A DNA stretch of 64,000 nt from an uncultured Gammaproteobacteria bacterium (GTDB taxonomy: Bacteria; Patescibacteriota; Patescibacteriia; UBA1558; GWA2-36-10). The translations under genes were made by a program, and so were the position numbers. The notes under the pieces are model-generated. The model worked only from the letters and a program-made list of their open reading frames with translations. It made no database searches and had not been told where the DNA came from. The stretch is from positions 16,243-80,242 of the forward strand of contig CAZRZA010000001.1 in NCBI GenBank assembly GCA_964604515.1, read 5' to 3'. Of the stretch, positions 1-61,571 are shown piece after piece (the stretch's first letter is position 1; each line of letters begins with the position of its first letter).

Positions 1-422
1 CTTTTACCACTTCCTGGTATATAAGGAACAACAACATAAAACTTTTTAGTCATTATTTTTTCCATTGTTACTAATTCAGAAATAAATTGTCTATAATCGG
101 CAGTTTGCATACGTAATAATTCATTAGTTTGTTCTTTTTCTAAAGATTCTAATTTATCTAAATAATCTTCAATATTTAAAGGACGAGATTGAACAACTAT
201 TTGAATAGGATATGCTAAAGAATTTAAAAATCCAACATAACCACTAATAACAGCTCTTTGTTCATCTTCTGACTTTAAGTCAAAGTTAATAGAAGATACA
301 AATAGCACTCCTCTAACTGTACCATCATTTAAAACAACCATATCATCTTTTATTTCTGCAATATCTAAATACTTCTGCGTAGAAGATGAGGGTTTATTTC
401 CGGCTAATTTTTTACTTTTCAT
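1..422 (-). CDS. VirB4/TraC-like type IV secretion ATPase, N-terminal fragment (gene continues beyond window start)
   Basis: Own translation of minus strand from ATG at about 420-422: MKSKKLAGNKPSSSTQKYLDIAEIKDDMVVLNDGTVRGVLFVSSINFDLKSEDEQRAVISGYVGFLNSLAYPIQIVVQSRPL... Pattern resembles N-termini of Gram-positive/CPR VirB4 (DUF87-type) ATPases; adjacent to PrgI-family gene. Not in ORF track because truncated. Confidence 0.4.
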   Translation of the reverse strand, partial: MKSKKLAGNKPSSSTQKYLDIAEIKDDMVVLNDGTVRGVLFVSSINFDLKSEDEQRAVISGYVGFLNSLAYPIQIVVQSRPLNIEDYLDKLESLEKEQTNELLRMQTADYRQFISELVTMEKIMTKKFYVVVPYIPGSGK

Positions 423-427
423 ATATT

Positions 428-889
428 TTATTTATTATGAACAACATTATTTTCCTGATTAGCATCTAATTCTCCTCTATATGCTCCTCCGGTATCTATT
501 ATTAATGATAGTTCTGATAATCTCTTTTTAGGAGCTAAAGACTTACGAGGAATAATCTTTTCTTTAATATCCTCTCCTTCTGCTTTTTTATGTTCTATTT
601 CTATATCCTCTTTTAACCAAACTCTAGTCTTTGGCTTTTTAAAAGATTGTATAAAGTTTAGAAGAAAAAAATGAAAAGGCATACCATTTACTTTAGCAAA
701 AGCTAAAGTACCAAAAGTTATTACTATTAATATTAATTGTAAGATGAATAAAGCAAAATCTGATAATTTATAAGCAACAAATGCTAAAAAGCCTGCAAAT
801 AAAACAATCAAAAATTGTCTAACAGTAATTGGTCCAAAAACTCTTGCTTCATTTTCTATAAATTGGGGGACAACAAATTTATCTTGCAT
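428..889 (-). CDS. PrgI-family small membrane protein (T4SS-associated)
   Basis: 153 aa, two hydrophobic helices, motif GPITVRQFL typical of PrgI-family proteins that accompany VirB4-like ATPases; 1-nt spacing to next gene. Confidence 0.5.
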   Translation of the reverse strand: MQDKFVVPQFIENEARVFGPITVRQFLIVLFAGFLAFVAYKLSDFALFILQLILIVITFGTLAFAKVNGMPFHFFLLNFIQSFKKPKTRVWLKEDIEIEHKKAEGEDIKEKIIPRKSLAPKKRLSELSLIIDTGGAYRGELDANQENNVVHNK

Positions 890-890
890 C

Positions 891-2075
891 TTAAAATCTT
901 AATAATTTATTTAAATCTGATATGGCTGTAAATTCTTTTTCTGTTAAAAATTCTTTCTTTTCTTTTTGATACTTATTTATAGTTTCTTTTACTTCTTTAT
1001 CATTTTCTAAACTTTCATTACCTATTTGTAAATATAGTTTATATATTTCATTATTCCTCCAAGCTTTTATACCTTCTGATTTTTTAGTGTAAGAATCTTC
1101 TGCTAAAAGATTAATCTTATAAAGTATTTTATCTGCCCTAGCCTGAGCATTGTCACCCAAACGCTGAAAATCACTTAATTTTAAATTCCTTAATTCATCT
1201 ATTGGTCCAGATAATACTTTTTTAGTTTTTTTAGATTGAGAAAGAACATCATCAATTTTATTTTTATCAGAACTAATCTTGGAGGGTCGAGAAACTTTTG
1301 GTAAAGCATCTTTAAATTTACTTTCTTTTTTAGCTACCTTTTCTTCTTTTATTTTCTTTTCTACTTTAGGTTTTTCTTTTATCTTTATTTCTGGCTTTAT
1401 CTCAGTTTTTATTAGCTGAGGTATTATCTTTGGTTCTGGAGCCTTAACTATATTTTTAATCTCTTTTATTTTAGGTTCAATAGGCTTTTGATTATCCTCT
1501 ACTTTCTCTAGCTTAACTTCTTCTATCATCACTACTAAACCACCTGCTTTTTCTATTTTCTTATATATTCCCTTTATTATTAATACTAAATTATCTACAA
1601 AATCTTTTTTTAAAGGTTTCTTATTTACTAATATTTTAGTATTTAAAGCCTCCCTTAAAACAATTATGCTTTTTCTATTACGAAAAAAATCAAAGATAAT
1701 ATTAGAAAAATATTCTTTATTTTCTTTATCTAATTTTAAATTATGCTTAATTATTAACTTATTAACTATTTTATTTAGACTATATTTCTTACTATTATCC
1801 TTTGGTAATTCTTTAGCTATTTTATCTAATTGATACTTATCTTCAGGATGAAAAGAAAAATCAGCCTTATCATTAGCTTGACCATTTAAAGAAGGTGTAG
1901 GCTCAAAAGAATCATTTTGAGGAGCTTTATCTAAATTAAAATTATTACTATTTTTTTCTTCCTGAAATGTATCTAAATCTTGATTTAAATTATGGAATTT
2001 ACCTTCTTGATCCTTAATTAATAAATCATTAGACCAATTACTATTATTTTTATTTTTGTCATCCTTTAAGGTCAT
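891..2075 (-). CDS. hypothetical Lys/Glu-rich protein (394 aa), possibly part of T4SS-like module
   Basis: Long ORF, K/E/I-rich with PEPK/IKPE repeats; no recognisable catalytic motif. Confidence 0.5.
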   Translation of the reverse strand: MTLKDDKNKNNSNWSNDLLIKDQEGKFHNLNQDLDTFQEEKNSNNFNLDKAPQNDSFEPTPSLNGQANDKADFSFHPEDKYQLDKIAKELPKDNSKKYSLNKIVNKLIIKHNLKLDKENKEYFSNIIFDFFRNRKSIIVLREALNTKILVNKKPLKKDFVDNLVLIIKGIYKKIEKAGGLVVMIEEVKLEKVEDNQKPIEPKIKEIKNIVKAPEPKIIPQLIKTEIKPEIKIKEKPKVEKKIKEEKVAKKESKFKDALPKVSRPSKISSDKNKIDDVLSQSKKTKKVLSGPIDELRNLKLSDFQRLGDNAQARADKILYKINLLAEDSYTKKSEGIKAWRNNEIYKLYLQIGNESLENDKEVKETINKYQKEKKEFLTEKEFTAISDLNKLLRF

Positions 2076-2137
2076 TTTACCTTAATATTAATATGTTAAA
2101 GTTTTCTATATTATAACATATTTTCCTCAAGAAGACC

Positions 2138-2167
2138 AACAAAAAAAATAAACCCTCTGCAGGGTTT
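2138..2167 (-). terminator. rho-independent terminator downstream of efp (minus strand)
   Basis: Hairpin aaaccctctgcagggttt preceded on plus strand by A9 (U-run on minus strand), 15 nt after efp stop. Confidence 0.6.
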
Positions 2168-2183
2168 ATTTATCTAAAATATT

Positions 2184-2741
2184 TTAAATTCTTTCTACAT
2201 ATTCTCCCGTTTCTGTGTTTATTTTTAACTTATCTCCTGCTTTTATAAATAAAGGAGTTCTAATTTCTAAACCTGTTTCTAAAGTAATAACTTTGGTAAC
2301 AGCTCCTGAACTATTACCCTTAACACCGTCAGGTGCTACAGAAACTTCTAAGATTATTTTTTTAGGTAAAGAAATAGAGACTGGATTATTATTAAATATT
2401 AAAACATTTACCTCTTGACCTTCTTTCAAATATTTAACTAAATCACCCAAAGTATCTTCATTAAATTGAAATTGCTCAAAGCTTTCATTGTCCATGAAGA
2501 AATAATCAGCTCCTTGTTGATAAAGAAAGTTAGCTTGACGATTAATAATATCTGCTTCTTCAACATTATCTGAACCAGAGAATGTTTTTTCTAAAGTAGA
2601 GCCAGTTACCAAGTTTTTTAATTTAGTTTTTAATACTGCTCCACCACGGGCTACTTTAATATGTTGAGTATATACTATTTGATAGGGATCATTATTTAAA
2701 TTAATAACTTTACCTAATTTTAATTCATTCATTGCTAACAT
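2184..2741 (-). CDS. efp: elongation factor P (Arg32-type loop)
   Basis: 185 aa; KOW/OB architecture; loop sequence IKVARGGA aligns Arg32 to the modified Lys34 of E. coli EF-P. Confidence 0.93.
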   Translation of the reverse strand: MLAMNELKLGKVINLNNDPYQIVYTQHIKVARGGAVLKTKLKNLVTGSTLEKTFSGSDNVEEADIINRQANFLYQQGADYFFMDNESFEQFQFNEDTLGDLVKYLKEGQEVNVLIFNNNPVSISLPKKIILEVSVAPDGVKGNSSGAVTKVITLETGLEIRTPLFIKAGDKLKINTETGEYVERI

Positions 2742-2745
2742 GAGC

Positions 2746-2964
2746 TTATCTTACTAAATATGGTAAAAAAGCCATAAATCTAGCTCTTTTTATAGATTGA
2801 GCTATTCCTCTTTGATGCTTAGAACAAGCCCCGCTTTTTCTTTTGGGAACTATTTTACCATAAGAGGAGGTAAATCTTTGTAATTGTTGCCAATTCTTAT
2901 AATCAATATGATCTTGATTATTAACACAAAAATGACAGTATTTATTCTTATTTTTCTTATGCAT
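2746..2964 (-). CDS. rpsR: 30S ribosomal protein S18
   Basis: 72 aa; CHFC... basic S18 signature; rpsF-ssb-rpsR order. Confidence 0.9.
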   Translation of the reverse strand: MHKKNKNKYCHFCVNNQDHIDYKNWQQLQRFTSSYGKIVPKRKSGACSKHQRGIAQSIKRARFMAFLPYLVR

Positions 2965-2981
2965 ATTATTTATTATTTAAT

Positions 2982-3425
2982 TTAAAAAGGTATATCCTCA
3001 ACATTAACTTCTTCTACCTCTGCTTCTTTAGTTACAGCTGGCTCTTCTTTTACTTGAGAATAATTATCTTTAGTATATTGCTGATTACTATTACCACCTT
3101 TATTATCTAACATAATCATATTATCAGCTATAATTTCTGTACGATATTTTTTTACTCCACTAGGATCATCCCAGCTTCTAGTTTGTAAACGACCTTCAAT
3201 ATATACTTTACTACCTTTTTTAAGGTATTCACCAACAATTTCTGCTAAACGACGCCAGGCTACTACATTATGAAATTCCGGTTTTTCTTGCTTCTGTCCT
3301 TGAGCATCTTTCCAAACCATATTAGTGGCTACAGAAAAAGAGGTTACATTTTGACCACCTGAAGTAGTACGCATTTCAGGATCACGAACTACATTACCGA
3401 TAATCATTGCTTTATTTAAATTCAT
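2982..3425 (-). CDS. ssb: single-stranded DNA-binding protein
   Basis: N-terminal OB fold (MNLNKAMIIGNVVRDPEMR...WHNVVAW...), acidic C-terminal tail ending DIPF. Confidence 0.9.
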   Translation of the reverse strand: MNLNKAMIIGNVVRDPEMRTTSGGQNVTSFSVATNMVWKDAQGQKQEKPEFHNVVAWRRLAEIVGEYLKKGSKVYIEGRLQTRSWDDPSGVKKYRTEIIADNMIMLDNKGGNSNQQYTKDNYSQVKEEPAVTKEAEVEEVNVEDIPF

Positions 3426-3446
3426 ATATTTATCTTATTTAATTTA

Positions 3447-3887
3447 TTAATCTAAAAGATTATCTAATTTAGAATCAATATCATCTAAATTAATCTTAGT
3501 GATCTCTACTTTATCTTCTTTAGGTTTGTCATTCTTAGTCTTTACCGCTTCTTTTTTAATTTCTCTTTTATTTTCTTTCTTTTCTTCTTCGCTAATAAAA
3601 GGTTTTTTGATAGTTAAATGACGTAAGATATTATCATTATGCTTTAACTTAGTATCTAAATCATTTAAATTACCCTTTTCTTCTGCTTTAAACTCTAAAG
3701 AAATATAAAAACCATGCTTTTGCTTATTAATAGCATAAGCTAATTTCTTACGACCTAAAGAAACGGGTTCTTTGCTTATTTGACCTTTAATACCTTTAAT
3801 GTAATCTAAAACCTTATTTTTGATTTCACCATGCTCTGTTTCAGGTATCAGAGCACTAATAATGAATGTTAGTTCATAGTTTTCCAT
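3447..3887 (-). CDS. rpsF: 30S ribosomal protein S6
   Basis: MENYELTFII... S6 N-terminus; track ORF extends 13 codons upstream from a GTG (3926) which I consider 5' UTR. Confidence 0.85.
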   Translation of the reverse strand: MENYELTFIISALIPETEHGEIKNKVLDYIKGIKGQISKEPVSLGRKKLAYAINKQKHGFYISLEFKAEEKGNLNDLDTKLKHNDNILRHLTIKKPFISEEEKKENKREIKKEAVKTKNDKPKEDKVEITKINLDDIDSKLDNLLD

Positions 3888-3899
3888 ATTTTTATAAAT

Positions 3900-3925
3900 T
3901 ACCCTCAAAATATATTTGAGGGACA
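3900..3925 (-). promoter_or_regulatory. hairpin in rpsF 5' leader (candidate S6:S18 autoregulatory structure)
   Basis: ccctcaaaatatatttgaggg inverted repeat (8-bp stem) immediately upstream of proposed rpsF start. Confidence 0.3.
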
Positions 3926-4054
3926 CATTTACTTAAAGTAAATAGTTTGGTTAATTAGATAAAAAGGAACTTTATTGACGTTAGCTACTTTAACATAAAG
4001 GGTATTATAAGTCAATATATTGACCTAATACTATATTTTAATTACTATTAACTT

Positions 4055-5227
4055 ATGAAAAGATATATATTTATTCTCGGACAAAATCCAGAATTATCAC
4101 AACAAGAAATTATTAATATTATTAAAAGAAAGAAAGGAATAATAGAGGCTATTTCTAATAGTTATGTTTTAGCTAAAATTAATATAAAACCCGCAGAATT
4201 AATTAATAATTTAGGAGGGATAATAAAAATAGTAGAGTATAAAGAAAGTATTAATAATTTAGAAAATTTAAATATTATTGATTATTATCAAGATAATTTA
4301 AATAAAGAAAAGAAAAATAATATTGGCTTTAGTATTTATAATAGTAATAATAAAGAATATCATAAAATATTTAAATCTTTTTTAGAATTAAAAAAAGAAT
4401 TAAAAAAAGATAATTATAAAATTCGTTTAGTGAGTAGTAAAGAAAATATATTATCTTCTGTAATTGTTTCTAAAAATAAATTATTAAATAAAGAATTAAT
4501 TATTATCAAAGATCATAATAATTATTTAATTGGCCTTACTTTAGCTATACAAGATTTTGCTAAATATAGTAAAAGAGATATGCTTCGACCAGCTCGAGAC
4601 AATAAATCAGGCATGCTTCCTCCTAAATTAGCTCAAATAATGATTAATTTAGCTAATTTAGATACTACTAAAGTATTTTTAGATCCATTTTGTGGTTCGG
4701 GAACTATCTTGCAGGAAGCTATGCTTTTAGGGTATCAAAATATAAATGGTAGTGATTTAAGTAATAAAGCTGTCATGGATACCAAAGAAAATATAGCTTG
4801 GCTTAAAAAAGAATATAATTTAAAGAATAATATTAATATTCAAAGAATGGCTACTAAAGACTTAAGCAAATTCTACCCTTCTCATTCTATAGATTTAATT
4901 ATTACTGAACCATTTATGGGAGATGCTCGTTTAATACAAAAAACTAATGACAAAGAAATATTAAAAAGCATTAAATATGAATTACAAGAATTATACTTAA
5001 ATACTTTTAAAGAATTTAAAAAAATACTATCCCCTCAAGGAAGAATAGTATTTATATTCCCTATCATTGATAATTTATATACTTTAGATCAAAGAGTGTT
5101 AAATAATATAGATTTTAAATTAATTAAAGTAGCTAATAACTCTGCTAATTTATCTAATAATAATAATTTAATATATAGTAGAGATAAACAAAAAGTTAAA
5201 AGAGAAATTACTATTTGGCAGAATTAA
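4055..5227 (+). CDS. SAM-dependent RNA methyltransferase, Trm11/RlmL-like (N2-guanine type motifs)
   Basis: DPFCGSGT (motif I) and TEPFMGD (NPPY-like motif IV) in C-terminal half; N-terminal half THUMP-like size. Confidence 0.5.
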   Translation: MKRYIFILGQNPELSQQEIINIIKRKKGIIEAISNSYVLAKINIKPAELINNLGGIIKIVEYKESINNLENLNIIDYYQDNLNKEKKNNIGFSIYNSNNKEYHKIFKSFLELKKELKKDNYKIRLVSSKENILSSVIVSKNKLLNKELIIIKDHNNYLIGLTLAIQDFAKYSKRDMLRPARDNKSGMLPPKLAQIMINLANLDTTKVFLDPFCGSGTILQEAMLLGYQNINGSDLSNKAVMDTKENIAWLKKEYNLKNNINIQRMATKDLSKFYPSHSIDLIITEPFMGDARLIQKTNDKEILKSIKYELQELYLNTFKEFKKILSPQGRIVFIFPIIDNLYTLDQRVLNNIDFKLIKVANNSANLSNNNNLIYSRDKQKVKREITIWQN

Positions 5228-6447
5228 GTTACCCAAGATAAATTATCCTTAATAACTTGTACTTCTCGCCATTTTAATATTCCATCAGCTTCATCTAAAT
5301 AAACAACTTGCCCACTACGCTTTATTAAATGAGTTAAATAATAAGCCATGATAGTGGGTTCTTTAATTTTTAATTTATCTACTAATATCATTTCTAAGAA
5401 TAATCTTCTTTTCAATAATGGTCCTTCTTTAACAAAACTATGAGCAACACCATTACCATATCTAATGGTTAGGAAACGCTTCATGACACTTTGTAAGCGT
5501 TTATCTTCCTTAATTAGCCTGTCTAGGCTCTTTTTCTTTATCAAGACCCTTAAACAGCCTAAAGCTTTATTACTATCTCCTAAGCCTAAACTATCCCATA
5601 GTAAATCTCCTACTTTCATTATTCTATTATCTACTTCAGAAAGAATATACTCTTCTGCTAAAATATCTTTTTCTAAATCTAATAAATCTTGTTTTAATTG
5701 TTCTAAGATATTATCAATATTTATTTCTTCTTTAACTTCTTTTTTCTTTTCTATATATTCAGCTACTGTTAATACAGAACCATTATTAATTATATTTACA
5801 ATATTATCCTTATCATATGAATCAAAGAACCTTATTAAGGAAGTCTTCTCTTCATTATTTAAATCTAAGATATTCTGATTATTAGAAAAGTATTTAGATC
5901 TTTGTAATGAATCATGATTACTGGCTCCTAAATAATGAACATAATCCTTTATCCAATTATCAACACTAGGAGTAACTTTACGATTATCTCTATTAACTAT
6001 CTTTTTAGAACTTAATCTTAAGTCTTTAAAGTCTTCATATTTTTTTAAAAGATTCTTAATATTACCATGAGCTTCATTGGGGAATAATTCATGTTGTAAA
6101 ACTGTTTTTCTTAAATGTTTTAAACGAGGCACTTTACCACCTAAACGAAGAATTAATCTATCTACTTTACCTAAATAATCTTGTAAAGGCCATAATATAT
6201 TATATGCTATTTCTAAGGCTAAAGCTCTTAAGTCTAATTCATTAGCATTTTCTATATCTTCTAATTTCTGAGGAAGGTCTAAAACAGAAACTTCTTTCAA
6301 AAATAAAGGTTTTTGTATGCTTACAATATAATCTATTTGCTTAAAACTAAGAGAAAACTTTTTTTCAATTTCTCTATTAATATTAGTTAAAGTTGAGCTA
6401 AAAACAATATCTTTAACTTCTTCTGGTAATTCTTGTAAGCTATTCAT
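5224..6447 (-). CDS. hypothetical cytoplasmic protein (407 aa), last gene of giant-protein operon
   Basis: Long ORF, 1-nt gap to upstream VirB6-like gene; no recognisable motifs. Confidence 0.5.
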   Translation of the reverse strand: MNSLQELPEEVKDIVFSSTLTNINREIEKKFSLSFKQIDYIVSIQKPLFLKEVSVLDLPQKLEDIENANELDLRALALEIAYNILWPLQDYLGKVDRLILRLGGKVPRLKHLRKTVLQHELFPNEAHGNIKNLLKKYEDFKDLRLSSKKIVNRDNRKVTPSVDNWIKDYVHYLGASNHDSLQRSKYFSNNQNILDLNNEEKTSLIRFFDSYDKDNIVNIINNGSVLTVAEYIEKKKEVKEEINIDNILEQLKQDLLDLEKDILAEEYILSEVDNRIMKVGDLLWDSLGLGDSNKALGCLRVLIKKKSLDRLIKEDKRLQSVMKRFLTIRYGNGVAHSFVKEGPLLKRRLFLEMILVDKLKIKEPTIMAYYLTHLIKRSGQVVYLDEADGILKWREVQVIKDNLSWVT

Positions 6448-6448
6448 T

Positions 6449-8899
6449 TTATTTATTAGATAACTTATCTACTGCCTTAGCTAAGTCTTCTGTTGCTTGA
6501 GTCTGGGCATCTTTAGCATCTTTGGCTGCAACTTTATCTTGTTCAGCTTGCACTTTTTTCTCTTTAGCATCTCTACTCTTCTGCTTCTTACTTATAAATT
6601 TATCACTTTCATCTTTATCATCATCTTCGTCTATATACTTATTATATTCATTAACAACTGTTTCGCTTACCAAATCTCTAGTAACTGTATTATGTAGCAT
6701 TTCATCTGCAGCCTCAAGATTTGTAGTACCATCATCATTTGTAACTTGCAATTCTACTATTAATTCTTTTTGTTTTCTGGTGCTCACTTCTTTTGTTAAG
6801 GATGCTGTATCCTTGGGATCAGCAATTCTAATAGCAGCTTTAAACATATCTGAAGCTTCTTCATTGTTCTTGGGAGCCATCTTAGCAAGAGATTTGCTGC
6901 TAATTACAGATCCTAAGCTCTTATCAAAGTCTTTTTTAGCTGCTGGATCAAGACCAGCGGTTAATTTCTTATAAGCAGCCTTGGATTGTTTAGGATCGTT
7001 CAATTGCATTATAGCTTTTTTACCAGCTGCACTTTCCTTGTCTATGCCACCATCTTTATCTGTTACCTTTCCTTCAGCCTTGATAGAGCTCATTCCTTCT
7101 TTAATAGCTTTTTGCATAGGCCCACTAAGTTTTTCAATAGACTTAAGAAAGTCTTCACTAGAGGTGTTCTTATTAGCTAATATTGCTCCTACTATTTCCT
7201 TAGCTCCTTCGGTTAACTCTCCGTTCTGGGCCATACTATCATCATCAAATCCTTTTAGAGCATCTACTCCTTTTGCTTTTACTAGTTTCTCTGCTGATTC
7301 TGGAGTATGAGTATCAGCTCTTGTCTGTCTTATTTTTTCTACTAACTCTGTTTCTCCTGCAGCACCTAAGTCTTCTATTACTCTCTGAGCCTCATCACTA
7401 TCTTTAAAATTATTATTTTTAGCCTTATCCTTACTTATGGCTAATTTAGTAGCTGGTCCCACACCCAAGCCTTTCTCTAAGTAATCACCCATGTCTGAGT
7501 CTGTTATACCAGCAGCTTTAGCCTTTTCTTCAACATAAGCTGTTTTCTTTCTTCGACGACTATTTTCTTTAGCTTTAGCACGCATTTCAACTTTCTCAAG
7601 AGATTCACCAACTTTACCAAAGGCTCCACCAACTTTTTGACCAAGTTTACTACCTGCTATTTCTTTTAATTTATCGCCATATTTACTGCCCGCTACTTGT
7701 TTACCAATTTTACTATCCTTAGCACTCTTAACTAACCTAACAGCTCCACCGCTTAACTTACTCTTGCCCCATGATGTAGCTCTAGAACCACCACCCTTAA
7801 ACATACCCTCTCCACTTGTGCCAGAATAGAGCATTCTTGCTCCTCCCTTAACTTTGTCTAAGGCTTTTTTCTTAACAGCATTGCCCATAGTACCTATAGC
7901 ATCAGATACTTTAGCAGCCCCTTTCATTCCCATCTCTGATGCTACCTGAAGACTGCCCATTAACATGGCTATACCAATAACAAAATTAATCATTTTATTA
8001 GGCTGATGAGCTTCTCCTAAGCCATCTAAACCGTCTCCTCCGCCACCGGAAGTCATGGAATCGCTTATATCACCAGCACCAACTATAGAAAAAGATAGCC
8101 AAAGAAAAAAAGCTAAAAGAGGGCCCTTTATTAATTCTTTACTTAATTTACTTAACCATTGATCAAAGTATTTCTTGCCACCTGGAAAAACATTAGCAAA
8201 AAAAGCCATAGGTGACAAAACAATAAGTATCCAAAGCTGAACTATCCTAGATGCAAAAGAAGTAATATATATTGCAATAACCATAACGGTTATTAAAAGC
8301 ATAATACCCATTAATATTACAGAAGTAACAACGATAAAGAGTTGCTCTCCACTAGCATTATCAATAGCTGTGCTTAATTCACCCCATTCTCCCATACCTA
8401 AAGCAACTGCTATATTACCAGCTGCTATATCTTTAATAGCAGCAACAAATGTTAACATTACTATTTGAAAAATATCAATAACAAAACCTACTATTGTTTT
8501 ACTAAAATTAATTAAAATAGCTAGAATAAGAAATTTCTTTAAAAGAGCTTCATAACCATAGCTTTTTATCTTTAATATAGTTGCAAAAGCAATAACTAAA
8601 AAAACAATAATAAAAAGCATATTAGACAAATCTCTCATTGCTATCCAACCATTTATAACGCCCTGTTCAAAAATAAAGTTATTATACTGAGCTATCATGG
8701 GTAAAATCCATAATTCTAATTTCAGAACTAAGCCTAAAGGATAAATCATTAAATAATAAACAATGCCTGCTATCATTTGTCCAGCAAAGCCCATCATACC
8801 ATCAGCATGAGCTAAATTAGGAATTATTAAACCACTGATTATCAAAAGAAAAGCCCAGTAATTATTTTTAAATTTATTTCTAATAATATTAATTCTCAT
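6449..8899 (-). CDS. VirB6/TrbL-like polytopic membrane protein with ~500-aa Lys/Gly/Ala/Asp-rich C-terminal tail
   Basis: Start placed at MRINIIRNKF... (signal-like, AHA cleavage) rather than track GTG at 8956 which overlaps the giant gene; ~7 hydrophobic helices in first 320 aa then low-complexity KxG-rich hydrophilic tail. Confidence 0.4.
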   Translation of the reverse strand: MRINIIRNKFKNNYWAFLLIISGLIIPNLAHADGMMGFAGQMIAGIVYYLMIYPLGLVLKLELWILPMIAQYNNFIFEQGVINGWIAMRDLSNMLFIIVFLVIAFATILKIKSYGYEALLKKFLILAILINFSKTIVGFVIDIFQIVMLTFVAAIKDIAAGNIAVALGMGEWGELSTAIDNASGEQLFIVVTSVILMGIMLLITVMVIAIYITSFASRIVQLWILIVLSPMAFFANVFPGGKKYFDQWLSKLSKELIKGPLLAFFLWLSFSIVGAGDISDSMTSGGGGDGLDGLGEAHQPNKMINFVIGIAMLMGSLQVASEMGMKGAAKVSDAIGTMGNAVKKKALDKVKGGARMLYSGTSGEGMFKGGGSRATSWGKSKLSGGAVRLVKSAKDSKIGKQVAGSKYGDKLKEIAGSKLGQKVGGAFGKVGESLEKVEMRAKAKENSRRRKKTAYVEEKAKAAGITDSDMGDYLEKGLGVGPATKLAISKDKAKNNNFKDSDEAQRVIEDLGAAGETELVEKIRQTRADTHTPESAEKLVKAKGVDALKGFDDDSMAQNGELTEGAKEIVGAILANKNTSSEDFLKSIEKLSGPMQKAIKEGMSSIKAEGKVTDKDGGIDKESAAGKKAIMQLNDPKQSKAAYKKLTAGLDPAAKKDFDKSLGSVISSKSLAKMAPKNNEEASDMFKAAIRIADPKDTASLTKEVSTRKQKELIVELQVTNDDGTTNLEAADEMLHNTVTRDLVSETVVNEYNKYIDEDDDKDESDKFISKKQKSRDAKEKKVQAEQDKVAAKDAKDAQTQATEDLAKAVDKLSNK

Positions 8900-8904
8900 A
8901 TATT

Positions 8905-11900
8905 TTAATCTACCTCTATCCAAGTATCGCTTGTATATATCTCTTCCTGATCCCACCAGTCTACAATTTTAATTTGGGGTTTATAACAAGATGTTCCTTC
9001 TTTATTTGATTTACCATCAGTACCATCACATTCAACAGCAGGGTCACCGCTATAAGTATAATTATATTGAAATACTTTATACCCCTCACTACAAGCATCA
9101 TTTGTACCACCAAAACCTTGCATATCTACACCAGTGTCTGTTGGATTATCACAAATTCCATTATCATCAGCATCAGTACACTCTAGAGAATGAGGCATTG
9201 TCCAATCAGAATTACATTTTGGTATTCTATTCTTATACTTACCAATAGTACCTGTAAAATAACCAAGGCCTTCCCAATCAACTTTTATAGCTTTTATGGG
9301 TGAAGCGTCAGGATATGCATAGTAATAGAATTTAATAGCTGCATTACCAGACTGATCATATTCTACCGTTATTCCTTCGTCTCCAAAAGTACATAAATTA
9401 CCACCACTACAATCAAGTTTATATGCTTTGGGATCATATACAGCCCCTGCATAACTATTAACAATATCACCAAGGCCGTCTGTTGAAAGATGATCGTAAG
9501 AATTACCGCTCCACTCTAAATTATATACTTGATAAAATAACTTTTTTAATTCTGTTACAATATATTCTGTCCCAAAGAAAACTGAAGAAGAATAATAAGT
9601 GTTATTAAGAACAGTACCTACTGGAACCTCAGTAATTATTGGTAAAGTATTGTCCCAATCTTGTGCTGCACCAAAATTACCATCTAATATTGTTGCGCTT
9701 CCAATCTCTGAGTATTTAAGAGCGGAAGAACCATATGATGCTGAGGAGTATGCATATGCTGACCAATTAACTATATCAGAAGTCGGATTATTTTTACTTC
9801 TCCACCAAATATCAGCTCTAACAATAGTCTTGTTATGCTCGGCAATACTGTCTACCTCTACAACTTGCCCACATTGCTGATAACAAGCATCTCCCGCACA
9901 AGTATTACCTGACAAAGAAATAGTATAACCACTTCCTGGTGTAGAGCAATCAGTTTCTGTTGTTGCTGCTAAACAGTCTTCTATTTCTGAGCTAATATCT
10001 AAGTCTGGAAAGCTCTCTGGCAATCCACTTAAGTCATATTCTGAGCAATAATCATTACTTATGGTTAAAGCCTCTATTAAGCTTACTATATCATACTCAT
10101 CTGTTCCATCGTCTTCTGTTCCGGCATTAATACTATCATAATAACCCTTATAAATAGTTTTGCTTCTCATACACTCTCTACCATAGGTTGGTCCTGAACA
10201 ATCAAGCTCATTGCACTCTTCTACTCCATCCTCTGGATTATATACATAATAATTATGATTCAATTCATTACAGTATGACTTATGACCATAAACACCCTCG
10301 TCCCAAGGACAATCCTTATGATCAGGAGTGTAACCAGGATAAGTACCATCACCACCTATACCATTTTCTAAATAAACATGTTTTGTATATACCTTGTGCT
10401 TGTTATCATCACAAGCCGGAAAACCAGACTCTTCACTTTCATCATTATGGCTACATATAATCTTATTATTATTTGTTAAACCAACTGATAAATAACTAGA
10501 ACCACTATATGTAGCATTAGGTTTTACATTTTCATCATAATAATAATATTTTAATGTCCCATCAAATAAAGCCTCAATATCACTCTCAAGACTTATGTCA
10601 CCGGTGCCAGATTCCAAATTAAAATCTTCTCTCATAAATCTACTATCACTAGCATCTCCAGGTATCAGTCTGCCACTACCTGTGGTAGGGTAAATAACTT
10701 CTTTACTAGAAACTGTATCGGTTTGATACTTTATATCTCCAATAGTATCTTTCATAAGATGCTTTAAGTAACTATTTTCAAACTCCGCAATATTAATTTT
10801 GCTACCAGCAGGAGCTACCATTAATAAATTACAATAATTATCGTTGAAATAACCACAATATATTAAATCTTCTGGTATTGTATATGCTTCACCAACTGAA
10901 CAGAAATATAAGTCTCCATCTGCATTATAATAACCAGCTTCATCATAATTATCATATAAACTATCTGTGCCACTAATGCTTTCTACCGGATACCATTGAG
11001 TGCATAAATTAGGAATACGATCATAAGAGCCACCCGCATCTGTATCTACTAATATATTAGATCCCTTAGGACTTTTATCATATTCTACACAAATACCAGG
11101 CCAATTATAATAAGTCTCAACTTTAGTTTTCTTAGAACAAGTACCAAAGCCCATCTCACCCTGACAATATACATCTTTATCTGTTGAAGTTGAACAATCT
11201 TCACCTAATAAATCAGGATCTCCTTCTGTACAAACCATATCACTAGAAGACTCTCCTTTGGCTATATATTTAGAATAATTAAGACCATAAGAAACTTTTT
11301 GATAAGTTGTTTCACAGCCACTAGGATTATCACTATTACAAATTTCAACTTGTTGATGATTTGAACTAATTTCACTGGTAGTAGGATTAATAACAGTATC
11401 TGGGAAAGGAGATTCTTCAATTGTATATCCTCTGGTACTTAAGCCATAATAAATATCATCACTATTACCTGCTTGAGGATTTAACCAACAACGCTCTTCA
11501 GAGCATTCACCATAAAAATCACCAACATTACAATCATCACCATTATTAGCAACATCAACACAAGCGGCATGTGTACCACCATTGATAACTAAACGAGGTC
11601 CATCAGTAAAATTATAAACTACCAAACCTTCAACTGGATACATATCTGGAACAGAATAACCTAAATATTCATCATCTGACCATCCTAAATAAGTACCTGC
11701 TAATCTTCCTTGATATTCTTCTTTAGTTAAAGGATCAACCTTAGTTATAATATCATCATCTAAATTAGTATAATTAGCCCATTGAGCACAACTTCTAAAA
11801 GGATCAGAGGAATCATAATTATATTCTGTACAAATACCCACTGAATCACATATATTTTTTACTTGCCCTTTATTATCTGTAACTTGAGTCAGAGACTTAC

Positions 11901-14900
11901 AAGCTAACCATTCTGAACACTTTCTATCTTTTTTAACTTTTATTAACTCATTAGAGTCACAGTCACCTACTATGGTAGGATCACAAGTACTAGGAGTCAT
12001 TGGAGTGCCAGCTGCTGTACTGCTAGCATAAGTGTCTATTGAGTCATAAATAGCTATTACTTCTGAGTGAGAAGAATTCCAATTATTAGCATTATAGAAT
12101 AACATACAACCACTATTCTGATCTACTTGACCAGTACAAGATGTTTTATCTATTTCCTCATTATCAAAATAATAATATGATTGATAATCTCCTTCTACAG
12201 TAATATCACAATTACCAGCTGTACAATCATCCATATCATTGGGATCTCTAAACTCTGTACATAAATTTTGTTCTTCCGGACAAATATTAACCCAATTATT
12301 ATTATAGTCACAGGGCTCTGGAGTATCAGTATTCAAGGTATCTATTTTCCACCAACCATCTGTCAAAGCATTATTATAGGTAATATCAGTTTCATAACGA
12401 CATAATTTATCTCCCGGATATTTAAAGTAATACATTTGTCCTTTAGAGTTTACAAAATTATCACAATATAAACCATCTTCTTCACATAGATTATCACTAT
12501 ATTGATCTGGATCATTGATACGGAAAACAGTATCATAATCAACTATAGTATCAGTAGTATCTAGTTCTGGTAATCCTAAAGCCTGACAACCCTGGTATTC
12601 TCCTGGACAATACTTATCAATATCTGGAACTAAATATTCAATACTATCTGCAGAAATAGTTAATTCTGCATTACCACTACCATATGTTTCTGCAAAAGGA
12701 CTGTCTGAATTATGAGTATTAATAACACCAGTACAACCAATAGCTTCTTCAGAACATAATTCATTAAATGATTTTAAATTATAAGCCTGCCCATTACCAT
12801 CAATATGTTCCTGACAACCAAGATAATAACCGGTATATGGTAAGTCACAAGAAGCTGGTGTAGTCCAAGAATCTTTAATCAAAGAAATATTACCAATAGT
12901 TTCTCTTAATTCTAAATTATCTATATAGATAAAATCAGCTCCATTTACTATTAATTGTAAAGACATATTATCTGCCAAAGAAGCATAATCTAATTCTGCA
13001 AAACTATCATTAGTAATTGTTAATTTATAATCTTGCCAATTAGATATTGCTATATCTTCATCAGAGTCTAAAGGAAGTTCCCCTAAGTCTATTATCTCTG
13101 CCCCTGTATCATCTAATAATTGAAGGCTAATATTATCTATAATACCTGTATTCATCATCCACCAGGATATTTCAAAGTTTTTATTTAATTGTATAGTATC
13201 TGCTATAGCTCTAGTAAAGGTACTGTTTGTGCTTAATTTTAAAGATTTACCATTATTAGATAAAGAAGCATTAGAAATATCTAAACTACCATTATTAGTA
13301 TTCCAAGAATTATAAGTACCATCTTCAAAATCATCTTTAAAGACGCTTCTTAAATTATTAGCAGAATTACCTTTATAAGCTCGACAATTGTTATGCTCTA
13401 TTGAACAACTATTACTTAAACTAGCTATGCCCTTATATAATTGTCCAGAACTATTACGACGATAATCAAGACAATTATCTGTCGCAAAAATTAATCTATT
13501 TTGTAATCTCCAATGAGTATTACCAGCTATATCAAAGAATTCACGACAATGAGGGTTATATTCTGGGTCATCATAAATATCAGCTGTATCTGCCCCACAA
13601 CTTGCTACAGTATCCGTAGTATCCTGACAAGTGTCTCCTCCAGGAGATATATTTGTACAAGGTGCTTGGTCTATATTAGATTTTAAGGCTAACCAAGTCT
13701 CTATTTGATAACCAGCGACATCAGAGCCCTCCCAAGTATAATATGTTTCTCCACTTTCTTCATAAACACATTGTCTAAGGAAAGAATAGTGTTCTGTATA
13801 TTCTCCTCCTTGACTTTGAGATCCTAAATTAGTAAATGATTCACAACCAATATATTGAGCTGGGCAAGCTATTCCTGTTTCTGGTATAAAATTATAATAC
13901 TCTACTTCATAATTACTTTCTAACTCATCAAAAGAACTTGGCATTTGAGCAAAAGAATCATAATTAAGACATTCAGCGGGACATAAATCATCTTGAGTTA
14001 TAATAGCTGGAATTAAATAACCACCATTAGAAGGAGTATAGCCCTGACAACCGACTTCTGTTGCCTGACACATTACTCTATCTTTATTTAAATTAATTTT
14101 ACCACCATCTCCATAGCTAGAATATGAAGGTGCAAAGCTATTTGCAGAAGAAACTATTTTTAATTGAATATTATCAAAATCTAAAAGACCAGTAGAAGAA
14201 TAAATATTAATACTAGCACTAGCTACATATTCATTTGTTTTAAAGTTACAATATCCTTTTTCTAAAGAAGTATTAGAAGGATTAAATTCTAATTTAATAT
14301 TATTATTACTTAAAGAACAATTACCAATGCCCTCTTCTCCTCCTGCTATACTGCTACTACTACAATCATTACTACCATCACAAGTTGCTATATCAATAAT
14401 AGCATCAGAATTAGATCCTGTTTGGGCAGCTAAAATTGCAATATTATAATTAGTATTAGGTAATAAAGTAATATTAGTATATAAGGGTGTTGTTCCTATT
14501 ATGACTTTTCCATCAAAAATACTACCCGCACCACTCCAACCAGTTGGTGTATTATTAGTCTCTCCATCAAAACTACTATTAGCTATTAAATTTGGTCCAG
14601 AGCCAGAACCAATAGCTGGTGTCATTACAATATATTCTGAACAGCCTTCATAATTATCGGGACAAGAACTAGTATTACTGTTTAAGAACAAATCATTACT
14701 TCCAATGCTTATATTACTATCTAAAACCCAGTCACCATTACTATCTTTTTCTTGAGAATAACGTAAACAACCCGCATTATTAGAGGTACAATACTCTAGA
14801 GTATCTTGAATATATGATTCTCTGCCATAACTAGCACTTTCAAAACTTAAACAGCCAGCATAATTAGGATTACAAGAATCACCTTCAAAACGCCAAATAT

Positions 14901-17452: not shown

Positions 17453-18283
17453 TTAAGATATTTTAGAATATAAATCTAACCAATTTTCTTTAGTTAAATC
17501 TTGAGCTCTAATATTCTTGTCTAAATTTAAACTGGTAAATATTTTAATCAATTTATCCTTTTTTAAATTACTGTCTATTATTAAATTATTTATTAATTTT
17601 TTTCTCTTATGTATAAAGCCTCTATGAATTAAATTCCAAACTTCATCTTCAGCTACATTATAACTCCATTGATGAATATCATAAATATGTATTAAAGCAG
17701 AGTCTACTTTAGGAATAGGATAAAAATCTTCTTTTTTTACTATAGCTACTGTCTCTACTTGAGCATAAAAAGAAATAGCTAAAGATAATAAGCTTTGTCT
17801 CTGATCTATTAAACGATCAGCCACTTCTTTTTGTACCATCAAAAACATATCAGAAGGTTGTTTTTTAAAAGACAAAAACTTATTAATAAACTTAGAGGTT
17901 AAATAATATGGTATATTGGCTACTATTTTATAATTATTTAATTTAGAATTTAATAATACTTTTCTAAATTGTTCATTAGTTAATGATAGTATATCTTGCC
18001 AAATAATTTCTAAATTATTATTATCTTTTTCTAATTTATTTAATACTTTAGAAAAATTTTTATCTATTTCTATAGCTATTACTTTCTGCTTATCTTTAAT
18101 TAATCTTTTTGTTAAAGATCCTAAACCAGGACCAACTTCCAAAATTAATTCTTCTTTGTTAATATTTGCTTCTTTAATAATAATATCTAAAATATCTTCT
18201 GAAATTAAAAAATTTTGCCCCCTAATCTTATTAGGAGACAAATTATATTTTTCTAATAATTTAAATAATTCTTCTTTAATCAT
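17453..18283 (-). CDS. rsmA: 16S rRNA (adenine1518/1519-N6)-dimethyltransferase
   Basis: GQNFL motif, VLEVGPGLGSLT SAM-binding motif. Confidence 0.9.
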   Translation of the reverse strand: MIKEELFKLLEKYNLSPNKIRGQNFLISEDILDIIIKEANINKEELILEVGPGLGSLTKRLIKDKQKVIAIEIDKNFSKVLNKLEKDNNNLEIIWQDILSLTNEQFRKVLLNSKLNNYKIVANIPYYLTSKFINKFLSFKKQPSDMFLMVQKEVADRLIDQRQSLLSLAISFYAQVETVAIVKKEDFYPIPKVDSALIHIYDIHQWSYNVAEDEVWNLIHRGFIHKRKKLINNLIIDSNLKKDKLIKIFTSLNLDKNIRAQDLTKENWLDLYSKIS

Positions 18284-30074: not shown

Positions 30075-30338
30075 ATATTTTATTTAATTATAATACTTTA
30101 TATTATAACAAATATTTAGCAAAAAACCAAATACCCTATTACTTTATATAAAATGGATAAATTAAGCAAAATAAAAACCTACTCAAAAAAATGAGTAAGT
30201 TAAAACTTAAAGCTTATTTTAGTTTATTTATTTTTAAATCTGTTTCTTCTTTTCAATTTTTTTCTTCTCTTGATCTTAACAGATTTTCTTTTATTCTTAA
30301 TTTTTGTTCCCATATTATTATTTAAAAATATTTAAAAC

Positions 30339-47859: not shown

Positions 47860-47896
47860 ATACATAAGTATACTATATATATGATATAATATAAAT

Positions 47897-48682
47897 ATGT
47901 CTTATAAACAATATTTAAAATTAAGAAAATTAAAACCAAATACAATTAAAATATATCTTTGGCATTTAAATATGTTTTTATTGTATTTTGATAAACAGAA
48001 GTTAAATACTATAAACCTTAACAAATACTATAGATATATATTAAATAATTATAAAAAAATAGCTACTATTAATATTCATTTAAGTATTATTAATAATTAT
48101 TTAAAGTATAAAAATATTAAATATCATTTTAATCTATTAAGTTCTGAAGAAAGAGATATTAGAGTATTAAATGATAAACAATTAAGAGAGTTTTTAGAAA
48201 AACCATTGCAAAGAAAAGGAATATTATCCTTAAGAGATAAAGTATTATTAGAATTATTATATTCTACAGGATTAAAAGTAAAAATAATTAGTAAATTAAA
48301 AAAGAATCATTTAGACTATATAAAGAATGAAATAATAATAAATAAAAAAATAATACCCCTAACAGCAACCGCCTGGTATTATTTAGAAAAATATTTAGAG
48401 TTAAGAAAAGATGATAATCCCTATATATTCATTAGTTTAGATAAAGCACAGAATTCTCAAAAAAGACTTAATAAAATAAAACCTCTCTCTATTAGATCTA
48501 TAGAAAGAATTCTAGAAAAATATTCTAAAAAATTCAATCCTATTTTAAGAATAACAACTCAAATATTAAGAGATACTTTAGCTTATAATATAAAAAATAA
48601 AGGGGGAGGTAAAAGAATAATAAAAAAAGCTTTGCACTTTCAAACAAAACTAGGAGCTGAAAGATATTTTCAAAAACTATAA
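47897..48682 (+). CDS. tyrosine recombinase XerC/D-like (phage-integrase family), possibly catalytically degenerate
   Basis: RDKVLLELLYSTGLKV box-I-like motif; box II region reads QILRDTLAYN and tail ALHFQTKLGAERYFQ with expected H-x-x-R His replaced. Confidence 0.65.
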   Translation: MSYKQYLKLRKLKPNTIKIYLWHLNMFLLYFDKQKLNTINLNKYYRYILNNYKKIATINIHLSIINNYLKYKNIKYHFNLLSSEERDIRVLNDKQLREFLEKPLQRKGILSLRDKVLLELLYSTGLKVKIISKLKKNHLDYIKNEIIINKKIIPLTATAWYYLEKYLELRKDDNPYIFISLDKAQNSQKRLNKIKPLSIRSIERILEKYSKKFNPILRITTQILRDTLAYNIKNKGGGKRIIKKALHFQTKLGAERYFQKL

Positions 48683-57442: not shown

Positions 57443-57494
57443 TGTTTGCCTCCCTTTTTCTATTGGATTATATTATAACACTTTTAATAAATTA

Positions 57495-61094: not shown

Positions 61095-61571
61095 CTATTC
61101 TTGCCAGTAAACACTTGAACCATGCTCACTTAAAGAATAAACATTAAAAGTACCTGCTTTAGCTCCAGACATACCAGGAGATCCCAGGGGCATCCCTGCT
61201 AAAGCTATGCCTTTAATATCTGGCTGTTCTTCTAATAGCTTATCAATGGCTGCAAATGGTACATGTCCTTCAACAACATAATCGCCAAAAACTGAAGTAT
61301 GACATGATTCCATATTACTGGGTATTCCGTATTCTTCTTTAATACTAGCCATATTATTTGTTTCTACAACATCAACAGCATAGCCATCTTCTTCTAATAA
61401 AGAAATGTAATTAGCGCAACAACCACAAGAGGGTGATTTATAAACAGTTACTTTTTGCTGAGAACTATTTATCTCTTCTTCAAAAGTTATTTCTTCTGGT
61501 ATAGAAGAAGTATTTAAATAAATAATTGTCATTACTATAACCGCTAAGGCTAATAAATTTATTTTTTTCAT
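61095..61571 (-). CDS. DUF411/CopG-like periplasmic metal-binding protein
   Basis: Signal peptide; SPSCGCC motif, Met/His-rich C-terminal part. Confidence 0.6.
   Translation of the reverse strand: MKKINLLALAVIVMTIIYLNTSSIPEEITFEEEINSSQQKVTVYKSPSCGCCANYISLLEEDGYAVDVVETNNMASIKEEYGIPSNMESCHTSVFGDYVVEGHVPFAAIDKLLEEQPDIKGIALAGMPLGSPGMSGAKAGTFNVYSLSEHGSSVYWQE

Follow-up and report, generated by a model that had tools for sequence, protein, structure and literature searches.

Positions 1 to 2,075 of the window (the whole 64,000-nt stretch of DNA analysed) most probably form the promoter-proximal stretch of the second of two transcription units that encode a type IV secretion system (T4SS) of the Patescibacteria type, fixed in the chromosome, a reading to which we assign a probability of roughly 0.8. 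This figure concerns what the system is; the functional roles proposed below stand at about even odds. The locus is a genuine example of the chromosomal, relaxase-less T4SS already described in the ultra-small Patescibacteria (CPR), most of which have it, and not a new kind of system, and the Patescibacteria-type T4SS derives from monoderm conjugation machinery of the MPF-FATA class. The source organism belongs to class ABY1, near Komeilibacteria, and has AT-rich DNA. The three minus-strand ORFs lie where the initial annotation had placed them, with gaps of 5 nt and 1 nt, and its reading of them as a T4SS module holds: the PrgI-family protein scores above the Pfam cut-off and the truncated ORF matches VirB4 N-terminal/TrsD profiles. 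The features of the region are:

1..422, minus strand: first 140 codons of a stand-alone 226-aa TrsD/"TraC-like" gene, cut by the window edge (profile matches; full gene on contig L001)
428..889, minus strand: PrgI/VirB3-family small membrane protein, 153 aa (PF12666, 40.5 bits against a gathering score of 27; two predicted TM helices)
891..2075, minus strand: Lys-rich accessory protein, most likely cytoplasmic, 394 aa (ORF; no Pfam/NCBIfam family)
2106..2123, minus strand: conserved putative promoter box AAATATGTTATAATATAG (cross-species conservation)
2146..2171, minus strand: intrinsic terminator of efp, hairpin and T-run
2184..3926, minus strand: rpsF-ssb-rpsR-efp housekeeping block, interrupting the T4SS cluster (Pfam)
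2184-2741, minus strand: efp
4055..5227, plus strand: SAM-dependent methyltransferase (UPF0020/N6_N4_Mtase), part of the inserted block (Pfam)
5224..6447, minus strand: 407-aa soluble protein (synteny; homologues between the VirB6-like gene and prgI)
6449..8899, minus strand: extended, putatively VirB6-like polytopic membrane protein, 835 aa (synteny, topology, TrbL_3 in homologues)
8905..16647, minus strand: secreted giant protein, 2580 aa (signal peptide; directly upstream of the VirB6-like gene)

VirB4 is split between two genes

The ORF at the window edge starts at 422 and runs off the window after 140 codons. The remainder of the operon can be read from the metagenome contig L001 (99.98% identity over 5,528 nt), which includes the full TrsD-like gene (5107-5787, 226 aa). 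The 140-aa fragment matches NF041427 (1.2e-10) and NF045975 (3.4e-8), while the full protein matches NF045975 positions 93-284, NF045971 positions 26-117 and also NF041427; a precomputed annotation gives it PF26593 (TraC-like). Its NF041427 scores, 41.5 bits for the fragment and 38.9 bits for the full 226 aa, are far under the curated NCBIfam cut-off of 200, and the protein is therefore only a distant relative of the TrsD/TraD family. When the AF2 model of a 91% identical homologue (P0148) was compared with PDB by Foldseek, the top 14 matches were R388 TrwK/VirB4 chains, the best with a probability of 1.00.

There is no P-loop in the 226-aa ORF; the ATPase is the ORF that follows. The stop codon of the TrsD-like gene overlaps the start of virB4 (TAATG), which lies just outside the window (L001 5787-7808) and encodes a 673-aa protein with a score of 364.5 bits on NF045971 (cut-off 325), a Walker A motif (GAGKS) and a Walker B motif (VVDEAW). 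Residues 254-610 of this ATPase match the VirB4 C-terminal domain structure 4AG5 (E 6e-48). The TrsD-like protein and the ATPase are complementary on two full-length VirB4 models, at positions 26-117 and 178-730 of 752 in one and at 93-284 and 272-887 of 894 in the other, and VirB4 is here encoded as two polypeptides that jointly cover full-length VirB4. In every related locus that has it the TrsD-like protein is a separate ORF, never fused to VirB4, and the top 120 of its 2,975 homologues are all 197-234 aa long. A frameshift artefact was rejected as the source of the TrsD/VirB4 split, which is the same in six independent assemblies and in all related species.

The initial annotation had called the truncated ORF a VirB4/TraC-like N-terminus. 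It is a homologue of the VirB4 N-terminal domain, as proposed, but it is a complete and separate gene rather than the start of the ATPase polypeptide. The Walker A and B motifs sought by upstream extension are both present, but in the next gene, and profile searches with the 140-aa fragment and the 153-aa protein returned the expected TrsD/VirB4 N-terminal and PrgI matches. The core reading stands because an ATPase is encoded in the sequence beyond the window start and matches to PrgI and VirB4 profiles exist. Judged from its nearest relatives, this VirB4 would fall in the published Patescibacteria clade.

PrgI, VirB6-like and downstream genes

The 153-aa ORF is a PrgI-family membrane protein, as first annotated; its two-helix hydrophobic hairpin is kept in homologues, and most related loci have prgI as the gene just before TrsD-VirB4, at a variable distance. 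Past virB4, L001 continues with a gene for a protein that weakly resembles VirB8, two membrane-protein genes, the gene for a VirB2-like pilin and a convergent recG. The VirB8-like signal of the first of these (184 aa) is one weak TraE match among 11 homologues, and its family profile gave only noise against PDB sequences. The pilin gene (L001 10040-10954, outside the window) encodes a Cys-rich tail; the protein scores 28.9 bits on PF18895 (cut-off 26.6) and matches NF045849 weakly.

The 835-aa protein has about eight TM helices and a Lys/Ala-rich hydrophilic tail of about 490 aa. Translation probably begins at ATG 8899; a start at the listed GTG (8956) would run into the giant gene. Neither a Pfam search with the window's protein nor a search of PDB sequences with the family profile gave a match. 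PF19590 (TrbL_3) is found in 6 of 27 homologues and weakly in the L062 orthologue, and a search of 32 homologues gave one TrbL_3 or TrbL match. In related loci the gene lies upstream of and near prgI-trsD-virB4. Synteny, topology and the TrbL_3 matches in homologues together suggest a VirB6-like protein.

The neighbouring 407-aa protein has no Pfam family. In Patescibacteria of other classes (L026, L027, L038, L042, L052, L059) its homologues are found between prgI and the VirB6-like gene. The 2580-aa giant protein contains 98 Cys residues and only a faint CBM_4_9 match; its orthologues of 2682 and 2902 aa occupy the same position in L062 and L063. This Cys-rich protein is linked to the VirB6-like gene and may be the adhesin that is missing from surveys.

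A housekeeping block splits the T4SS cluster

The locus was compared with the 51 genomic loci closest to it, at 47-79% identity. Most come from MAGs assigned to Patescibacteria lineages; about a dozen are filed under different names (Gammaproteobacteria, Bdellovibrionales, Fimivivens, Peribacteria), in our view wrongly. The same proteins in the same gene order were found again in independent assemblies and in other species, and because of this recurrence the arrangement is not due to chance. In most of the 51 loci an unbroken run of genes encodes the VirB6-like protein, the 407-aa and/or Lys-rich protein, PrgI, TrsD and VirB4, which bears out the proposal that the module and the VirB6-like/giant-protein gene string are two halves of one system. 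Here the start of the 394-aa gene is 3.1 kb from the 407-aa/835-aa/2580-aa string, close to the 3 kb first estimated.

Most of the 51 loci lack the rpsF-efp block at this point; L010, L062, L063 and L061 alone have it, and there the methyltransferase gene travels with it. The split T4SS arrangement is found only in L010, L062 and L063 among the related loci. Insertion of the methyltransferase and rpsF-ssb-rpsR-efp is confined to the Komeilibacteria-like (ABY1) clade of the window. A role for the ssb gene product as a T4SS-associated SSB like PrgE was considered and rejected, as ssb sits in the universal rpsF-ssb-rpsR operon.

As the initial annotation had it, the module is directly downstream of efp with the efp terminator between them (2171-2146). 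Four related species have a GC-rich stretch and a T-run of other sequence at the same place, where hairpins were judged by eye and not folded. The conserved box that follows reads as an extended −10 element (TGnTATAAT), with TG at 2118-2117 and TATAAT at 2115-2110, in a 17-nt block shared without change by five species with Lys-rich proteins only 38-65% identical to that of the window. Similar boxes precede other operons in the window. In DNA this rich in AT, a generic scan for promoters carried no information (47 sites against 48 expected), and for this reason the call is based on cross-species conservation. The second half would be transcribed from a conserved extended −10 promoter of its own (the TGTTATAAT box, around 2100) that directly follows the terminator of efp. 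No structured RNA was found near the module with Rfam. The T4SS cluster can evidently be divided into two units, each with a putative promoter of its own, and still be conserved.

A Lys-rich protein precedes PrgI

The first gene of the second unit encodes the one modestly new item of the locus, the rest of the system having been described already. The 394-aa protein lacks a signal peptide and transmembrane helices and is 19% Lys overall. It comprises a folded N-domain (about residues 77-182), a disordered Lys/Pro/Glu-rich linker (183-289; 28% Lys, pI about 9.8) and an all-helical C-domain (290-394); AF2 pLDDT exceeds 90 in both domains. No PDB fold match was found for the domains (best E-value 2.2), and Tandem Repeats Finder detected no real repeat unit in the linker. 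Pfam and NCBIfam gave no family for the protein and 29 homologues; the sole matches among the homologues were an ALMT match judged spurious and, in three fusion proteins, the receiver domain. The family, which has no Pfam model, nevertheless comprises 2,580 representative clusters at 50% identity. Its members range from 355 to 1020 aa through N-terminal parts of variable length, while the C-domain and C-terminus (…DLNKxLRF) are invariant, and a C-domain gene is directly upstream of prgI in 11 of 11 ABY1-type loci. The N-terminal module of the 407-aa protein is common to other Lys-rich-family members (hhalign probability 89.6%); by profile-profile comparison the window's copy mostly lacks it, and BLASTP found no similarity between the 394-aa and 407-aa proteins. 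The N-domain is also present in a cytoplasmic response regulator that is linked to CheA and whose gene adjoins that of the PilB pilus ATPase.

Position and conservation make a role as cytoplasmic accessory subunit the best guess for the Lys-rich protein. A more specific proposal, that it is an unrecognised subunit of the ABY1-type T4SS that serves as a substrate or nucleic-acid receptor in place of a coupling protein, with an N-domain that could provide a link to pilus chemosensory control, is speculative and unlikely. If true, T4SS activity could be tied to the chemosensory control of type IV pili through the N-domain. A widespread, unannotated two-domain protein is always found in front of prgI.

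Proposed function of the system

By analogy with R388 cryo-EM structures and with Saccharibacteria, PrgI would anchor the assembly of TrsD and VirB4 ATPase to the membrane beside VirB6, and the ATPase, as in general T4SS architecture, would power assembly of a VirB2-type pilus or channel. The Lys-rich C-domain may dock on this PrgI/TrsD/VirB4 base, leaving the basic linker and N-domain free to capture a regulator or a substrate. The lack of an accompanying relaxase or coupling protein suggests that the machine may serve contact or exchange with a host bacterium rather than conjugation. Its expression, pilus formation and substrate are likewise presumed by analogy.

The same lack of a nearby relaxase or coupling protein would suit a competence-type T4SS for DNA uptake, like Helicobacter ComB or archaeal Ced, that imports host DNA or RNA, with the Lys-rich protein binding incoming nucleic acid at the cytoplasmic face. 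The composition and pI of the linker fit such a role, and recG is convergent at the operon end here and in L010, L062, L063 and L014; recG, comF and radA adjoin ABY1 T4SS loci according to the published survey (PMC12102498). A 2026 preprint also proposes host RNA uptake with T4SS pili as a possible conduit. However, the Lys-rich protein shows no recognisable nucleic-acid-binding fold, and the adjacent ssb is part of a universal operon and not a T4SS gene. The T4SS of Southlakia epibionticum is essential (Wang et al. 2023, PMC10633639), whereas comEC competence is dispensable for viability (review, PMC12857230), and ComEC DNA uptake is therefore not what makes the system essential. We regard the uptake reading as unlikely.

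T4SS substrates often bear C-terminal, positively charged signals. The Lys-rich protein might accordingly be a translocated effector, with the C-domain and extreme C-terminus as secretion signal; the invariance of these parts beside N-terminal parts of variable length, and the place of a protein without signal peptide or membrane segment at the head of the operon, would agree with this. A fixed place before prgI and conservation over 2,580 clusters are more typical of a machine component, and the N-domain is common to a cytoplasmic response regulator. An effector is thus improbable, and an accessory subunit is the preferred reading.

The locus is probably chromosomal

Pfam searches of the whole window and 8 kb beyond it, about 72 kb in all, found none of the flanking genes for a relaxase, coupling protein or adjacent integrase that the initial annotation had suggested looking for. 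The genome could still carry a coupling-protein gene at another site, a common situation in the phylum. The rest of the window encodes housekeeping proteins (LeuRS, KsgA, IF2, PNPase, RNase Y and others), and the GC3 of the T4SS genes (0.11-0.22) is the same as that of their housekeeping neighbours. These results uphold the earlier suggestion that the module is chromosomally fixed rather than mobile. The suggestion that a T4SS is unusual in such a context fell: in the survey of Patescibacteria chromosomal T4SS by Quiñonero-Coronel et al. 2025 (PMC12102498), VirB4 is reported in 2,417 of 3,035 genomes, mostly on the chromosome, with usual neighbours such as dnaA and ksgA, and recG in class ABY1.

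It is highly improbable that an integrated conjugative element, split by rearrangement, left these genes behind as a remnant or as one of its arms: the closest non-Patescibacteria profiles are indeed ICE or plasmid conjugation ATPases (CD1110 family, Mycoplasma ICE Mbov_0397, pGO1 TrsD) and there is a small tyrosine recombinase gene at 47897-48682, but this 261-aa recombinase, the only one found, is 46 kb away amid housekeeping genes, no mobility genes or deviant GC3 mark the locus, the exact order including flanking housekeeping genes is kept where Lys-rich proteins are only 38-42% identical, and the system occurs in about 80% of Patescibacteria genomes with little between-class transfer (PMC12102498).

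Comparison with known systems

Like the VirB3-VirB4-VirB6-VirB8 inner-membrane complex of R388 and Agrobacterium, the system has a VirB3-like and a putative VirB6-like partner, a TrsD model that matches the TrwK/VirB4 fold and an ATPase domain that matches TrwK residues 446-741. In contrast to that complex, VirB4 is made as two polypeptides, genes for the outer-membrane core (VirB7/9/10), VirB11 and VirD4 are absent, and the organism is a monoderm.

The TrsC-TrsD-TrsE set of pGO1/pSK41 (MPF-FATA subclass) similarly encodes a VirB3-like protein, a small homologue of the VirB4 N-terminus and a VirB4 ATPase in separate genes, arranged in that order. Here, however, the TrsD score is 38.9-41.5 bits against a cut-off of 200, there is no relaxase, coupling protein or plasmid context, and there is a VirB2-like pilin, a component missing from Gram-positive systems.

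The closest counterpart is the Patescibacteria T4SS, the first T4SS reported to be essential to its own bearer and thought to serve the epibiotic lifestyle of a very large, mostly uncultivated radiation. Both have separate genes for TrsD, VirB4, PrgI/VirB3, a VirB6-like protein (putative here) and a VirB2-like pilin, no relaxase or coupling protein nearby, and a position amid housekeeping genes with ksgA upstream and, as in class ABY1, recG at the end. The accessible sections of the published survey name no counterpart of the Lys-rich family (PMC12102498). The locus is a clean ABY1-class example with several testable details, and it differs from the described systems in being bipartite, with the methyltransferase and rpsF-ssb-rpsR-efp separating the VirB6 half from a VirB3/VirB4 half that has its own conserved putative promoter, in the 2580-aa Cys-rich secreted protein directly upstream of the VirB6-like gene, and in having one long Cys-rich-tailed pilin rather than an array of short pilins.

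T4SS gene order at the window start

The ORFs, intergenic gaps, PrgI-family and Lys-rich assignments and efp terminator given in the initial annotation for the window start are correct in every element.

T4SS genes and their neighbors in the window
17453-18283, −, ksgA, upstream end of the string
between ksgA and the giant gene, −, 243-aa protein
8905-16647, −, 2580-aa secreted giant protein with signal peptide, 98 Cys and pI 4.2, directly upstream of the VirB6-like gene
6449-8956, −, 835-aa polytopic membrane protein (VirB6-like), probable true start ATG at 8899
5224-6447, −, p407 (407 aa)
4055-5227, +, methyltransferase
3926-2184, −, rpsF, ssb, rpsR and efp
2171-2146, −, terminator 3′ of efp (hairpin and T-run)
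2075-891, −, 394-aa Lys-rich ORF, 1-nt gap before the next ORF
889-428, −, 153-aa ORF (PrgI), 5-nt gap before the next ORF
from 422, −, edge ORF (TrsD), leaving the window after 140 codons

Profile searches bore out the PrgI assignment (40.5 bits against the Pfam model, gathering score 27), and the 140-aa edge fragment matched the TrsD/TraD model at 1.2e-10 as well as the N-terminal part of VirB4 models.

The edge ORF is a stand-alone TrsD-like protein

At least eight metagenome contigs encode the exact 153-aa PrgI protein. L001 (13.8 kb), the longest, differs from window positions 1-5528 by one base. On L001 the edge ORF is complete at 226 aa, with its stop codon and the start of the following gene overlapping in TAATG. 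This following gene encodes a 673-aa ATPase that has both Walker motifs (A, GAGKS; B, VVDEAW). The ATPase scores 364.5 bits against the CD1110-family VirB4 model (cut-off 325) and matches 4AG5, a crystallized VirB4 C-terminal domain, at E 6e-48. The two proteins are complementary on full-length VirB4 models, the 226-aa protein and the ATPase covering 26-117 and 178-730 of a 752-position model and 93-284 and 272-887 of an 894-position model. When the AlphaFold model of a homologue with 91% identity to the 226-aa protein is compared with the PDB, TrwK/VirB4 chains of plasmid R388 take the first 14 places, with probability 1.00 for the best hits. The best 120 among 2,975 database homologues all fall within 197-234 aa. 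Wherever a related locus has a match to an HMM of the family, the match is an ORF of its own immediately before virB4, never a fusion. The edge ORF is therefore TrsD-like: it encodes a VirB4 N-terminal-domain protein that stands alone and is not the start of the ATPase. The initial annotation, which took it for the ATPase N-terminus, was thus right about the VirB4 homology, but the Walker motifs lie in the next gene. An assembly error is ruled out by the same split in 6/6 contigs examined and by the never-fused HMM matches in related loci.

Genes downstream of the ATPase on L001, beyond the window
184-aa bitopic protein; 1 of 11 homologues matches Pfam TraE (VirB8 relative) at 9.6e-5
150-aa membrane protein
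399-aa membrane-anchored protein
10040-10954, 304-aa pilin; T4SS_pilin domain 28.9 bits against 26.6, tail with 20 Cys
recG, convergent, after the pilin

The VirB2-like pilins are unusually long (304-496 aa; L001 10040-10954 and, in two compared loci, L010 14094-16254 and L015 18682-21653). They occur singly or in tandem pairs and have a tail after the pilin domain; in L001 this tail is Cys-rich.

Two halves of one system

Scanning species-representative genomes with the 673-aa ATPase yielded 51 loci. The nearest is a mislabelled MAG (79% identity), followed by Magasanikbacteria, Falkowbacteria, Uhrbacteria and Doudnabacteria (62-70%); Lys-rich and TrsD homologues carry the name Komeilibacteria. 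These lineages are placed in GTDB class ABY1. Most of the 51 loci have the 835-aa homologue immediately before a p407-like gene, a Lys-rich-like gene or both, with prgI, trsD and virB4 following. This contiguity identifies the module at the window start as the other half of the VirB6-like/giant operon, as initially proposed. The methyltransferase and rpsF-ssb-rpsR-efp separate the halves only in the window, L010 and two Komeilibacteria-labelled contigs (L062 and L063). From the giant gene through to recG these split loci keep one gene order, despite a Lys-rich identity of only 38-42%. L061 is the closest relative, with 65% identity in the Lys-rich protein; upstream of its methyltransferase lie dnaE...dxr and a gene for a POTRA protein in place of the giant and VirB6 genes, so the two halves can be unlinked. 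The methyltransferase-rpsF-ssb-rpsR-efp-Lys-rich block of L061, which follows these genes, spans 6088-7992.

We aligned the spacer between efp and the Lys-rich gene from five species, judging hairpins in the relatives by eye without folding. At the terminator position there is a GC-rich stretch of unrelated sequence with a T-run, followed in all five by an invariant 17-nt block containing TGTTATAAT. This block holds a putative extended −10 promoter, of a type also found before other operons in the window. The second half would thus be an independently promoted operon. Further boxes of the TGTTATAAT type lie at 47877-47894 (+), 30098-30115 (−) and 57468-57485 (−). The box at 47877 ends just 3 nt before the ATG of a Xer-like recombinase gene, so a leaderless transcript would result.

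The VirB6-like, giant and Lys-rich proteins

Pfam TrbL_3, a VirB6-family model, was found in 6 of 27 homologues of the 835-aa protein; a Pfam search with the window protein itself gave no match. The VirB6 label is therefore reasonable but indirect. With the listed GTG (8956) as its start, the gene for the 835-aa protein would run 52 nt into the giant gene's end; aligned with its L010 orthologue, it more probably begins at the ATG at 8899. The last ~490 residues of the protein make up a hydrophilic tail, rich in Lys and Ala, like that of "extended VirB6" proteins, and orthologues span 699-1678 aa. Orthologues of the giant protein (2682 and 2902 aa) occupy the same position in L062 and L063. A DsbA-like thioredoxin (62130-62882, −) and a DUF411/glutaredoxin-like protein (61095-61571, −) could form the disulfides of the giant protein and the pilin tail.

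The Lys-rich protein contains 19% Lys. Pfam and NCBIfam assigned no family to it or to 29 homologues; receiver domains of three fusions and a single spurious ALMT match were all that turned up. Searching with a profile built on the family gave 2,580 clusters (50% identity), 1,759 of them below 1e-30. In the AlphaFold model, residues 77-182 and 290-394 form two confidently predicted domains (pLDDT > 90), for which Foldseek found no PDB relative, joined by a linker predicted to be disordered (28% Lys, 13% Glu, 8% Pro). The conserved part is the C-domain, which directly precedes prgI in 11/11 ABY1-type loci. A domain 63% identical to the folded N-domain (window 1521-1865) forms the C-terminal output part of a response regulator of 227 aa (L064 4623-5306, also L065 and L066). 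In these MCP-CheW-CheA-RR-PilB-PilC operons the regulator gene stands between cheA and pilB, which codes for the pilus ATPase, so T4SS and type IV pilus gene sets have a domain in common. The p407 family and other members of the Lys-rich family share an N-terminal module. In one population variant (L003 ~750-776, window ~1376) a 27-nt insertion in the linker brings a stop codon, so that the two folded domains fall in separate ORFs of 236 aa and 164 aa. We infer that the Lys-rich protein would be a cytoplasmic accessory subunit docking on the PrgI/TrsD/VirB4 base. Conceivably it could instead be a T4SS substrate or a nucleic-acid-binding factor of an uptake system.

A chromosomally fixed T4SS

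Pfam annotation of the remainder of the window gives housekeeping genes (a class-I aminoacyl-tRNA synthetase read as LeuRS, Sua5, KsgA, IF2, RbfA, PNPase, S15, RNase Y and LspA), with a sensor kinase and a DsbA-like protein. It contains no relaxase or coupling protein, and the lone small tyrosine recombinase is 46 kb distant. GC3 of the T4SS genes (0.11-0.22) equals that of their neighbors. On these grounds the module is chromosomally fixed and not mobile, as the initial annotation had suggested might be the case.

Comparison with published Patescibacteria T4SSs

The module represents the system surveyed by Quiñonero-Coronel et al. 2025 (PMC12102498), who found VirB4 in 2,417 of 3,035 Patescibacteria genomes as a monophyletic clade inside the MPF-FATA class, with TrsD the commonest associated component, followed by PrgI/VirB3, VirB6 and VirB2-like pilins, and relaxases nearly always absent. 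In that survey Patescibacteria T4SSs are chromosomal and adjoin housekeeping genes (recG, comF and radA in ABY1), so the context, which the initial annotation considered unusual, is the norm for the phylum; the T4SS assignment itself stands. Only two leads are worth following here, the Lys-rich family and the giant Cys-rich protein linked to the VirB6-like gene. The giant protein may be the adhesin missing from published Patescibacteria T4SS surveys. An orthologous cluster, lacking coupling and relaxase proteins, is essential for epibiotic growth of Southlakia (Wang et al. 2023, PMC10633639), and a 2025 review (PMC12857230) raises the possibility that the system acts as a pilus-based conduit linking epibiont and host.
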